In this document: one piece after another, positions 21,041 to 23,714 of the stretch
Position numbering within the stretch: position 1 is the first letter of the stretch
Layout: every line of letters begins with the position of its first letter
Assembly: GCA_050952525.1 (NCBI GenBank)
Contig: JBMNLC010000001.1
Span: forward strand, 340,123-404,122
From: Clostridia bacterium
GTDB taxonomy: Bacteria > Bacillota > Clostridia > Christensenellales > JBMNLC01
Direction: 5' to 3'
Length of the DNA: 64,000 nucleotides
Made by a program: the position numbers and the translations under genes
Notes under the pieces: model-generated
Database searches by the model: none
Told to the model about the DNA's origin: nothing
The model's input: the letters and a program-made list of their open reading frames with translations, nothing else

Positions 21041-22473
21041 ATGACAGGGGATACTTTGCAAATTTTTATTGCTATGGTTTTATACGTGGCTGTAGTGATT
21101 CCCATCGGCGTGTATTATGCCAAGCGTGCCAGTGAAAGCAGCGAGAATTACATTATCGGAGGCAGATCCCTGGGACCGTGGGTGACGGCCATGGCCGCCG
21201 AAGCTTCTGATATGAGTGGATGGCTGCTGATGGGACTTCCGGGTGTCGCCTACTGGTTTGGCTTGAGTGATGCATTCTGGACATCGGTAGGTCTTTTGGT
21301 AGGTACATATTTGAATTGACCCTTGGTGGCTAAAAGAATTCGGAGGTATTCAGTGATAGCCGGAAATGCAATCACCATCCCTGACTTTTTGAGCAACAGG
21401 TTCAAGGAAGAAAAGAAGGTTATCGCTACAATCGCGGCTTTGTTTATTTTGATTTTCTTCAGTGTTTATGCGGCAAGCTGTTTTGTTACGGTTGGAAAGC
21501 TATTCAGCACATTATTCGGCATGGAGTATATATATATGATGATCGCAGGCGCTTTGTTTGTTATTGCGTATACATTTGTCGGCAGATTCTTAGCAGAGAG
21601 CGCCTCTGATTTTATGCAGGGTATCGTCATGTTCTTTGCCTTAGTTATGGTGCTGATAGCAGGGGTATCAGCCGCCGGCGGTGTTTCTGTTGTTGTTGAC
21701 AATGCCCGTCAAATACCCGGATTATTAGAGTTCTTTGGGATAGCCCAGCCGTTGCTTAACGATGGGGTCCAGGAGCTTGTGGCGGGAAAGCCTTTGTTCG
21801 GAGAAGCGGCTGAATATGGATTTTTAACCATTATTTCCACCTTATCTTGGGGGCTAGGTTATTTCGGTATGCCTCAGGTTCTGCTGAAATTCATGGCCAT
21901 CAGAAAAGCTGATGAGCTTGTCTTGTCCAGAAGGATTGCAACCGTTTGGTGTGTCATATCCCTGGCTGCAGCAGTATGCATTGGAATTATTGGCAGAGTG
22001 GTATTTCCCGATGCCTTGCTTACACAGAGTGCAGCTGAAAAAATCTTTATATTGACGTCAACGAATTATTTTGTTCCTATATTTGCCGGGGTTGTGATGG
22101 CCGGCATCCTTGCGGCTACCATTAGCTCGTCAGATTCATACCTTCAGATTCATACCTGTTGATTGCTGCATCTGCTTTTTCAAAAAGCATTTATCATGGC
22201 ATCCTGAAAAAGGATGCCACCGATAAAGAAGTTTTGTGGGCATCGAGACTTACATTAATTGCAATATCTATTATTGCAATGATCATCGCTTTGGATGGAA
22301 ACAGCATTATTTTCAAAGTCGTTTCCTTTGCATGGGCAGGCTTTGGGATTTACGAGTTGCTTCCGGCATTTGTCCTGTCCTGTATCGTCATTGTCATCGT
22401 TTCCTTGCTAACAAAAGAACCCTCCCAGGATGTATTGGATGAATTCGAGTTAGCGAAATCATATGAATTATAA
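21041..22473 (+). pseudogene. putP: Sodium/proline symporter, disrupted
   Basis: SDMSGWLLMGLPG and WGLGYFGMPQ motifs. In-frame TGA at 21317-21319; a 14-bp tandem duplication at 22130-22157 causes a frameshift; the C-terminus looks internally deleted. Confidence 0.85.
22130..22157 (+). repeat. Perfect 14-bp tandem duplication tcagattcatacct x2
   Basis: Read directly; removing one copy restores SSSDSYLLIAASAF. Confidence 0.9.
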
Positions 22474-22479
22474 TTTTAA

Positions 22480-22520
22480 TTAAAGATGCCGTATTCCCTG
22501 AAGGAATAAGGCATCTTTAA
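22480..22520. terminator. Hairpin downstream of putP
   Basis: ttaaagatgcc-gtattcc...ggaata-aggcatctttaa inverted repeat. Confidence 0.6.
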
Positions 22521-22654
22521 ATCCGGAGCACTATGAACGGATGTCTGATTGTAGTTCTTCATTATATTTGGGGATATATGGGTGATTAAGCTTTATATTA
22601 TTTTGGATAAGATTTCCTAACATAATAAAAGACAAAAGGGACACGATAATAACA

Positions 22655-23057
22655 ACGGGTGCGTAACGGTTGAGCCCAGACTCATATGTGCTCCACAGAT
22701 GGGGTATATATGGGTCGGCCAAAGATTGCATATGGGTCAGAAATGGTTCATATGCAGTCGGAGGGAAGATTCTATAGGGTGGGGAAAAGCTTTATTGCAG
22801 TCGTGTCCTTGGAAGTTCATGATTGTAATAGGGTTCCAACCTATTCTATAGGGTCGAGCTAAGATCATACAGGGTGCCGAAGGTTTTGTTTCTTTTATGG
22901 TTGTATGCAGTCGAGAGATTGCATACAGCTATGCAGGTATTCTGTATGGTCGAACGAACCATCATCATAGGTGACGAACTGCTTGGTCATGGTCGAAGGA
23001 TCATGGCTGGGTAATAAGTGATCTGTGGTGGTGCAAGGTAGATCGTTACGTGCTCGT
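22655..23057 (+). ncRNA. Candidate large structured RNA: nine G-U-rich 15-18 bp helices around a six-way junction
   Basis: Hand-verified pairings. The ends 22655-22671 and 23041-23057 pair with each other; almost all non-Watson-Crick pairs are G-U on the + strand; GAAA and GAGA tetraloops; no credible ORF. Confidence 0.8.
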
Positions 23058-23096
23058 CTCCATTTTTGGAACGAAATACTGTGAAGAGGAACGGGA

Positions 23097-23651
23097 ATGA
23101 ATTGCATTGAGCTTATGGTGGAAGAGCACAGGAACATCAAGAGAATGCTGGTGGTGATCCGGAAGTATTGCTACAGGATCCTGCAGGATGAAAGAATTGA
23201 ATTTGAGGATTTTTATAAAATAATCGATTTCTTACGAAATTACACCGATGAACACCATCATGGGAAAGAGGAAAGCATGCTGTTTAACAGGATGCTGAAT
23301 GAACTGGGGCCCATTGCCGAGAAATTAATTACCCATGGCATGCTTGTTGAGCATAACCTGGCAAGACTGCACATACAGGAGCTGGAGGACGCTCTAAAGC
23401 GTGTTCGAGAAGGGGATGATGAAGCCAGATTGGATGTCATCGCCAATGCCATTTCCTATACCCATTTACTCAAGAGGCATATTCAGAAGGAAGACGATGC
23501 TATGTATACATACGCTTCCCAGCGGCTGAACAAGGAAACCTTGGATGCCTTGAATCAGGAATGTAAGGAATATGAGGAAGACAGTACAAGAAGAGCCTTA
23601 AGGGGGGAATACCTAAGCCTTCTACGGGAATTGGAAAGAAAAGTGGAATAG
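23097..23651 (+). CDS. Hemerythrin/HHE cation-binding domain protein
   Basis: EH, HHGKEE, EH and HIQKED iron-ligand motifs. Confidence 0.88.
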   Translation: MNCIELMVEEHRNIKRMLVVIRKYCYRILQDERIEFEDFYKIIDFLRNYTDEHHHGKEESMLFNRMLNELGPIAEKLITHGMLVEHNLARLHIQELEDALKRVREGDDEARLDVIANAISYTHLLKRHIQKEDDAMYTYASQRLNKETLDALNQECKEYEEDSTRRALRGEYLSLLRELERKVE

Positions 23652-23714
23652 AATCTGAAAATGATAAAGCAGCTAGGCTGCTTTTTTATGCTTCATTCGG
23701 ATATATTCCTATGA

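Follow-up and report, generated by a model that had tools for sequence, protein, structure and literature searches.

To our knowledge, only a handful of large bacterial RNAs are both highly conserved and of unknown function (OLE, ROOL, GOLLD and raiA). The raiA motif is about 200 nucleotides (nt) long, ROOL and GOLLD are often linked to prophages or tRNAs, and Clostridiales-1 is a multi-hairpin RNA motif of the Clostridia. Here we report on a large structured element at 22655-23057 on the + strand of a 64,000-nt stretch of DNA, hereafter the window, from a Clostridia bacterium of the order Christensenellales (JBMNLC01; assembly GCA_050952525.1, contig JBMNLC010000001.1, positions 340,123 to 404,122 of the forward strand). 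An earlier note, made without database searches, had paired this element by hand into nine helices around a six-way junction and proposed that it encodes an undescribed noncoding RNA (ncRNA). We find that 22655-23057 is the gene for a stand-alone structured RNA, and that this RNA belongs to a large family in endospore-forming Bacillota, one that apparently is uncatalogued.

The closest described RNAs are reported as follows. OLE works as a ribonucleoprotein, and ROOL and GOLLD form homo-oligomers (Kretsch et al. 2025). The raiA motif usually lies between raiA and comFC and occurs in more than 2,500 species, including Actinomycetota; its disruption leads to sporulation defects in Clostridium acetobutylicum (PMC10861870). 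CsfG is described, in papers that cite the original report (Marchais 2011), as a forespore-specific ncRNA under sigma-F and sigma-G that is present in endospore formers and absent from non-sporeformers. In Bacillus subtilis it is a 136-nt RNA encoded between ylbG and ylbH, with conserved loops rich in C and U (PMC3574147). Bvs196/S547 of the Bacillus subtilis group is an abundant, independently transcribed RNA whose promoter ends 4 nt before the transcript start (PMC9147052).

Results

The + strand of 22655-23057 has a minimum free energy (MFE) of -205.9 kcal/mol, compared with -115.6 +/- 5.6 kcal/mol for 100 dinucleotide shuffles (z -16.1), none of which is as low. The - strand reaches -82.8 kcal/mol (z -1.85), a value equalled or bettered by 3 of 100 shuffles. 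Thus, the earlier claim that the fold is strand-specific holds. The nine hand-paired helices and six linkers were likewise recovered, each lying at most 2 nt from its hand-paired position in the MFE fold. The pair counts needed revision: about 145 pairs, about 40 of them G-U, had been estimated, and the MFE fold contains 158 pairs, 44 of them G-U with both orientations counted, with one unpaired position in helix P8. All 44 non-Watson-Crick pairs in the element are G-U on the + strand; because these become A-C on the - strand, that strand folds only weakly. A genome-wide scan for perfect hairpins of at least 13 bp returned 1134 matches, and on a reading of the scan list, without a formal test, the element is the sole site seen to hold four such hairpins in about 300 nt.

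Homologues of the element were found with a 22-letter pattern taken from the low-variation stretch 22942-22965, which is present at 19 loci in named genomes, all of them Bacillota. The carriers include Caldicoprobacter oshimai, Caldicoprobacter algeriensis, Clostridium ganghwense (two copies), Clostridium polyendosporum and a Desulfitobacterium, together with metagenome-assembled genomes (MAGs) labelled Clostridiaceae, Natronincolaceae, Syntrophomonadaceae, DTU074 and UBA3930, one Bacilli MAG and one MAG with three copies. Sixteen of the 19 loci can be aligned along essentially the full element, with 72-83% identity, and three are cut by contig ends. An alignment of 17 full-length sequences (A1) was analyzed with RNAalifold, and the consensus is the same nine-helix, six-way-junction fold. 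Compensatory double changes are seen in 76 of its 152 pairs, as against 38.9 +/- 3.4 in shuffled alignments, of which 0 of 500 reach 76; when the partners are slid by 1-3 columns, merely 12-17 pairs show double changes. In the same alignment, 98.3% of cells are paired versus 89.4% in shuffles. In all 17 sequences, 14 of the G-U pairs are unchanged, showing that the wobbles are a conserved feature rather than a sign of decay. The homologues therefore covary well above both the shuffled and the slid controls, and this covariation, together with the RNA contigs described below, strongly supports the proposal that the element is a structured ncRNA selected at the RNA level.

The same pattern of change is visible in environmental sequences. 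Public sequencing runs that hold the stretch are bioreactor and anaerobic-digester metagenomes, and four runs were mapped to the window. Copies in these runs are diverged, with compensatory substitutions such as 22982 C>T together with 23011 G>A, or 22989 A>G together with 23004 T>C; over 22942-22965 they hardly vary. Three DNA runs (X4-X6) cover parts of the window and contain homologues of the element in other genomic contexts.

The whole structured RNA measures about 403 nt from the first to the last base of P1, and homologues align over query positions 1-403. All of the parts given here were placed by the fold and are numbered on the + strand of the window. The closing helix P1 (17 bp) pairs 22655-22671 with 23041-23057; counted with an adjacent 3-bp mini-helix, it shows double changes in 10 of 20 pairs. 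Two plain hairpins follow: P2 (22679-22716; 17 bp, 22679-22695/22700-22716), with double changes in 8 of 16 pairs and a loop that varies in the family, and P3 (22724-22759; 16 bp, 22724-22739/22744-22759), with a GAAA loop and double changes in 6 of 14 pairs. The remaining three arms are nested hairpins. The P4/P5 domain (22768-22855) consists of P4 (22768-22783/22840-22855, 16 bp) and P5 (22788-22805/22818-22835, 18 bp), separated by a conserved GAAA/CCAA internal loop. The P6/P7 domain (22863-22951) consists of P6 (22863-22878/22936-22951, 16 bp) and P7 (22896-22912/22917-22933, 17 bp), the latter capped by a GAGA loop. The P8/P9 domain (22960-23033) consists of P8 (22960-22975/23018-23033) and P9 (22980-22994/22999-23013, 15 bp), whose loop is GAAG here and mostly GAAA in homologues.

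The linkers between these arms are almost invariant. J2/3 (GGCCAAA, 22717-22723) is invariant in 17 of 17 sequences, and J1/2 (GAGCCCA, 22672-22678), J3/4 (GGAGGGAA, 22760-22767), J4/6 (GAGCTAA, 22856-22862) and J8/1 (CAAGGTA, 23034-23040) are nearly so. J6/8 (GAACGAAC, 22952-22959) lies in the most conserved stretch of the element, the one across which the 22-nt pattern that found the 19 loci was drawn. The GCC of J1/2 is predicted to pair with the GGU of J8/1, a 3-bp helix without any double change. Invariant or near-invariant strings across the family are GGCCAAAGAU, GGMGGGAAGAU, GUCGAGCKAAGAU, GUCGAACGAACCAUCA and GGUGCAAGGUAGAU, along with the GAAA/CCAA loop of P4/P5. Helix lengths are also kept across the family, whereas most terminal loops differ between homologues in both sequence and length. 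The GNRA loops of P7 and P9 depart from this pattern; that of P7 is present in 29 of 32 sequences of a second alignment (A2) by hand count.

The earlier note had also suggested that the RNA is built from a repeated helix module, and this too was borne out. Each helix begins with GAU (or GAC) and ends in GUC, and the junction pattern GUC-purines-GAU recurs in the P5, P7 and P9 hairpin loops. A covariance model, R1, was built on the P6/P7 domain from alignment A2 and scores 109.7 bits on that domain in the window. Two further sites in the same genome are recognised by R1: the P4/P5 domain, at window 22761-22863 with an E of 2e-9, and P3, a weaker match with an E of 0.04. In other genomes R1 gives adjacent double matches. 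The match of P4/P5 to the P6/P7 model points to internal duplication and, taken with the adjacent double matches, suggests that the nested domains are ancient internal duplicates.

We used blastn and R1 to establish how widely the RNA is distributed. Both detect a single locus in the window's own genome. In the window's class, with 399 genomes scored, blastn detected the RNA in 17 others and short, P6/P7-only matches in five more. These five belong to a second subtype, which keeps the linkers and the general layout and has a different 3' domain. In this subtype (loci L074-L078, L086, L092, L094 and L099) the 5' half is the same, J6/8 reads GAGCAAAG and the last domain is another nested hairpin; blastn detects its P6/P7 part only. 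In an even sample of the phylum, R1 matched 55 of 150 other genomes, a figure that is a floor given the stricter filters in use, and all six of the R1 loci that were folded have P1, the same linkers and the same domain order. In the class around the Bacilli MAG, R1 matched 5 of 150 other genomes. Copy number ranges from 1 to 4 per genome, sometimes with two copies a few kb apart. Such diverged pairs are seen on G083:C134 (18519-18935 and 25077-25488) and G536:C9 (1430-1545 and 4043-4149), and loci L011 and L016 share one contig.

Among 60 relatives of the same order, neither blastn with the element nor R1 gave a match, and the nearest copies, at 83% identity, are in other families of the class. 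The window's genome is thus the sole carrier seen in its order, which could reflect loss within the order or horizontal gain. Phage records gave no blastn match, and the 22-nt pattern is absent from viral contigs. One plasmid match, 29 nt in a Priestia plasmid (6% of the query), was taken as chance.

Among the genomes searched, the RNA occurs only in those with genes for small acid-soluble spore proteins (SASPs). In the 151-genome phylum sample, 131 genomes have SASP genes (130 when the window's own genome is set aside). The RNA is present in 55 of these 130 and in 0 of the 20 SASP-negative other genomes, an association with a Fisher p of 4.7e-5 that is not corrected for kinship.

Promoter-like blocks lie directly upstream of P1. 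In the window these are a -35-like ACATA (22620-22624, + strand) and, 17 nt after it and 6 nt before P1, a -10-like CACGATA (22642-22648, + strand). The family consensus for the first block, from upstream alignments of 17 and 49 loci, is GnATA, from which the window copy differs at the first base. In the set of 17, GnATA stands upstream of P1, often after CCAG, and is followed at 15-18 nt by a -10 region such as TGGTTAATATAATAG that ends 4-7 nt before P1. In the 49 distinct loci the -10 region is mostly CAnAATA, CATAATA, CATATTA or TATAATA, with G's just upstream. The Bacillus subtilis sigma-G consensus is GnAT[A/G], 17-18 nt, CAn[A/T][A/C/T]TA. In its strict form this consensus occurs at 13 of the 49 loci, as against 0.17 in shuffles (maximum 2 in 200 shuffles), and the distance from the end of the strict-form -10 to the GAGCC linker is always 23-26 nt. 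Relaxing the consensus gives 35 of 49 loci versus 6.7 expected. A search for sigma-70-type promoters in 22400-23200 found none, the mean in shuffles being 2.5.

SASP genes are classic forespore genes, and their upstream regions offer a comparison. The design 'ACCAG..TAAA..N..TGGTTAAnTnAATAG' found upstream of the RNA also precedes SASP genes in the window's own genome and in three of five others examined. One SASP gene of the own genome has ...ACCAGCGTAAAA, 14 nt and TGGTTAAATTAATAG upstream, and a second resembles it. Of 11 occurrences of the -10 motif in this genome, two are those SASP promoters. Of the 31 SASP upstream regions in six genomes, 7 contain GGTTAA. In Clostridioides difficile, passages of two papers place three SASP genes under both SigF and SigG, whose consensus sequences overlap (PMC7438776, PMC3789822).

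At the other end of the element, a run of five T (23063-23067, + strand) begins 5 nt after the 3' arm of P1 and is a possible termination signal with P1 as its stem. Thirteen of 17 loci have at least four T within 13 nt after P1, and some loci have a separate hairpin terminator further downstream.

Evidence for expression comes from a compost metatranscriptome (X19). Two of its contigs, of 376 and 382 nt, align end to end to 22668-23042 and 22669-23048, respectively; a third, of 373 nt, aligns to 22701-23049, and shorter contigs cover parts of the element. RNA contigs of 373-387 nt lie within 22668-23049. They comprise several variants at 82-96% identity to the window, with depth up to about 52. 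Unlike DNA-derived contigs, they stop at the expected RNA ends and do not run on into the flanks. The contigs are good, albeit indirect, evidence that discrete, abundant RNAs of about 400 nt exist.

The element sits in a 620-nt intergenic gap. Downstream is a hemerythrin-domain gene (23097-23651) that starts 40 nt after P1; the interval 23058-23097 holds a ribosome-binding site only, and the scan of 22400-23200 mentioned above found no sigma-70-like promoter. In this genome, read-through from the promoter of the RNA may account for hemerythrin transcription. Other genomes do not share this arrangement: over 69 loci the downstream gene does not belong to one family across species, and no neighbour family recurs outside one clade of 8. 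Neighbours are ordinary genes and include enoyl-CoA hydratase (ECH), permeases, SpoIIP, YunB, glucosaminidase, NUDIX and MatE, depending on the locus. Neither the 20 nearest neighbours scanned in 15 homologue loci nor the 7 genes around the element include a transposase or phage gene. The changing neighbours exclude a hemerythrin leader and argue against a mobile element. The earlier note had raised dispersed copies of a miniature inverted-repeat transposable element (MITE) as a threat to its reading; we found one locus in the own genome, and the copies in other genomes (1-4) differ in sequence, target-site duplications not having been separately searched.

Upstream of the element lie a broken sodium:solute symporter gene (21041-22473) and then a hairpin at about 22482-22519. 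The symporter gene has an in-frame TGA at 21317-21319 and a frame-shifting 14-nt tandem duplication at about 22130-22157, and is read as three open reading frames (ORFs) with SSF domains; it is either a pseudogene or the product of an assembly error. As deposited, the 13 contigs of the genome show a strong purine excess (G 782,489 versus C 665,006; A 872,744 versus T 836,140), which suggests that most contigs are oriented along the leading/coding strand. Elsewhere in the genome, on the minus strand of C5:179507-179719, three 13-bp hairpins with G-U pairs are spaced by exactly 106 nt and may be a tandem repeat or a repeated leader.

A coding function for the element was considered and rejected. 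Short ORFs do occur inside it, and stop-free antisense stretches are found in 7 of 69 loci; these are accounted for by the C/A-rich composition of the antisense strand, and the loop indels are not multiples of three.

No Rfam 15 family accounts for the element. Searches with its 4227 models gave no family match on it: cmscan of 22000-23700 at E<=10 returned 7 weak matches, of which the sole one to overlap the element is GEBRO (22557-22693), at 13.8 bits versus a gathering score of 284.7, and the whole window has 0 matches at gathering scores. A full-length Rfam match, which the earlier note had named as what would remove the novelty, is thus absent from both the element and the window. The models for OLE, ROOL, GOLLD, raiA and HEARO do not identify it as a member. 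The suggested kinship with Clostridiales-1 did not hold up either, with no match to its Rfam model at E<=10. In 15 homologue loci the only Rfam matches are to tRNA, T-box, cobalamin and BsrG models, all off the element, and in 20 further loci there are 4 matches at E<=0.01, none of them on the element. The BsrG match, in Caldicoprobacter oshimai (L008:7283-7542; 55.4 bits versus a gathering score of 55), lies about 1.9 kb downstream of that organism's RNA copy. The linkers of the family include the strings GGCCAAAG and GAGCKAAGAU. Full-text literature searches turned up no account of an RNA of this kind, and passages of Narunsky 2024 and Stav 2019 contain none, although their supplementary motif tables could list one.

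Discussion

The explanation that we favor overall, and consider reasonably probable, is that 22655-23057 is a stand-alone gene for a ~400-nt RNA that would be transcribed in the forespore and serve as a scaffold or ribonucleoprotein core. Its parts differ in strength. Transcription by forespore sigma factors is probable. That the RNA is a folded particle in which the invariant junction core and the repeated turns bind protein to form a scaffold or ribonucleoprotein core is a tentative proposal drawn from patterns of conservation, plausible without yet being probable.

According to this explanation, forespore RNA polymerase with sigma-F or sigma-G would transcribe the gene as it does SASP genes, with the transcript starting at the first base of the closing helix P1 and ending at or just after P1, before the U-run. 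The RNA folds as a six-way junction with plain hairpins P2 and P3 and with nested domains P4/5, P6/7 and P8/9 derived from one duplicated module. Selection keeps helix pairing, fixed helix lengths of 15-18 bp, fixed G-U positions and near letter-exact purine-rich linkers, leaving most loops free. The RNA would build up inside the forming spore and work in trans as a folded particle, in which the junction core, the 'GUC-purines-GAU' turns and the GNRA loops of P7 and P9 may hold one or more proteins or the RNA's own tertiary fold. The variable loops, the conservation of linkers and wobbles and the constant helix lengths are together more in keeping with a scaffold than with an antisense regulator, and the variability of most loops argues against loop-mediated base pairing. 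A ribozyme is a further rival reading.

Several observations weigh against this explanation. The strict sigma-G consensus is found at only 13 of the 49 loci, and the window's own ACATA-17-CACGATA is a loose match to the forespore consensus. A simple terminator scan found nothing after P1, and 4 of 17 loci lack the T-run; the empty scan is attributable to P1 being a long-range helix. The RNA is missing from 75 of the 130 SASP-positive genomes and likewise from 23 of 23 SASP-positive relatives of the same order, so it is not a core part of sporulation and is better seen as an accessory feature of spore-formers. Finally, the expression evidence does not come from this organism itself: the X19 contigs derive from other organisms and reveal neither their strand nor their precise ends, and DNA can be present in an RNA library.

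Among the alternatives, the one that survives best, although we consider it unlikely, is a sponge or decoy function, in which approximately nine 'GUC-purine-rich-GAU' turns (six linkers, three loops) would titrate a single RNA-binding protein, in the way that CsrB and RsmZ act on CsrA. The turn motif is indeed present at J2/3, J3/4 and J4/6, in looser form at J1/2, J6/8 and J8/1, and again in the loops of P5, P7 and P9, and the cross-matches of R1 indicate that the modules are homologous. The linkers nevertheless differ from one another while each is itself conserved, a pattern that suits a unique tertiary core better than a set of equivalent sites. Hfq would be one candidate protein, being encoded in 52 of 55 RNA-positive genomes versus 61 of 75 SASP-positive, RNA-negative ones (123 of 150 overall). 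The enrichment is too weak to count and is confounded by kinship, and there are 3 exceptions.

It is rather less likely that the RNA has already been described under a name absent from Rfam 15, either as an unnamed motif from a screen or as the clostridial counterpart of Bvs196/S547. A family found in over a third of the sampled genomes could have been met by earlier screens, and Bvs196, a 294-nt forespore RNA under sigma-F/G, has conserved stems and variable loops (PMC9147052, in the passages cited). However, Bvs196 has been reported from Bacillus alone, where it sits between hinT and ecsA, and its consensus fold is at -82.3 kcal/mol, while the class around the Bacilli MAG carries our RNA in no more than the 5 of 150 genomes noted above. 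The Rfam searches of the window and of the 15 and 20 homologue loci found no match, and neither the full-text searches nor the passages of the two GC-IGR papers, supplementary motif tables aside, gave anything like it.

A comparably doubtful reading is that vegetative cells produce the RNA with the main sigma factor, for housekeeping or under stress, and that the likeness of its promoter to forespore promoters is a coincidence of AT-rich -10 boxes. Many copies do have a perfect TATAAT at -10, and the compost RNA data are silent on cell type. Yet no TTGACA-like -35 and no TG extension were seen, and the GnATA block stands at forespore spacing far more often than in shuffles, in a design common to SASP promoters; the absence of the RNA from all 20 SASP-negative genomes of the sample also counts against this reading.

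Self-assembly into an RNA-only particle, by analogy with ROOL, GOLLD and OLE, seems improbable as well. Helix lengths fixed at about 1.5 turns, the GNRA loops on P7 and P9 and the quasi-palindromic arms, which could in principle pair between molecules, would suit such a particle, and homo-oligomers are reported for these three other large bacterial RNAs in the passages cited from Kretsch et al. (2025). The terminal loops, however, mostly vary in sequence and length, making conserved kissing loops unlikely.

Finally, we find it scarcely credible that the element is a cis-acting hemerythrin leader, a mobile repeat (MITE) or a DNA-level palindrome cluster: the hemerythrin gene does begin shortly after P1 with no promoter of its own in the gap, and some genomes hold 2-4 copies, but the downstream gene differs at almost every locus, the own genome has one locus, no transposase is near the 15 homologue loci scanned or in the 7 genes around the element, every non-Watson-Crick pair is a G-U of the + strand while the - strand is without the fold, each copy has its own promoter blocks, and none is found in viral contigs (by pattern) or phage records.

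Returning to the stand-alone, forespore-transcribed RNA that we favor, a bolder form of the proposal can be put forward, which we regard as possible but would not call probable. It holds that the family is a new, overlooked RNA class, present in about one third of the sampled phylum genomes: a six-armed particle that would derive from an anciently triplicated hairpin module, be made in the forespore together with SASPs and be stored in the spore, where it may bind protein or self-assemble during dormancy and contribute to spore resistance or germination.

The family merits attention for several reasons. Each of OLE, ROOL, GOLLD and raiA opened new biochemistry, and the covariation support for this family is comparable. 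It is common, with 55 of 150 sampled phylum genomes matched, and seemingly abundant in environmental RNA. Its restriction to genomes with spore genes, among those searched, and its SASP-like, probable forespore promoter give a handle on its biology; that this is a large family confined, among the genomes searched, to SASP-bearing (endospore-forming) ones, with a probable forespore-type promoter, goes beyond what the earlier note had proposed. Harmless cultured carriers are at hand for study, namely Caldicoprobacter oshimai DSM 21659, Caldicoprobacter algeriensis, Clostridium ganghwense, Clostridium polyendosporum and a Desulfitobacterium. In addition, near-perfect helices of about 1.5 turns around an invariant junction make the RNA an attractive target for cryo-EM and RNA nanostructure work.

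Comparison with known systems places the RNA near, and outside, each of them. It resembles Clostridiales-1 in being a multi-hairpin RNA of the Clostridia, but does not match that Rfam model at E<=10. With raiA it shares the character of a widespread, structured, trans-acting ncRNA of the Bacillota; unlike raiA, it has no fixed context, occurs only in SASP-bearing genomes among those searched and gives no Rfam match. ROOL and GOLLD are likewise large, ornate bacterial RNAs with many helices and GNRA-type contacts, from which it differs in having no match in phage records or viral contigs and none in Rfam. It would share forespore control with CsfG, but does not fit it when the two are compared by description, given its 403 nt, variable loops and purine-rich conserved linkers. 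The closest functional analogue is Bvs196/S547, a forespore RNA under sigma-F/G that, like this RNA, has conserved stems and variable loops, and that is set apart, by description only, by its length of 294 nt, its hinT-ecsA location, its being reported from Bacillus alone and its far weaker fold of -82.3 kcal/mol. OLE, finally, is like this RNA a large, highly structured and conserved stand-alone ncRNA of anaerobic or extremophilic Gram-positive Bacillota whose biochemical function is unknown. It differs in being about 600 nt long and associated with oap genes, whereas the RNA described here is about 400 nt long, has no conserved neighbour and does not match the OLE model; with its repeated-module architecture, it is also far more regular than OLE.

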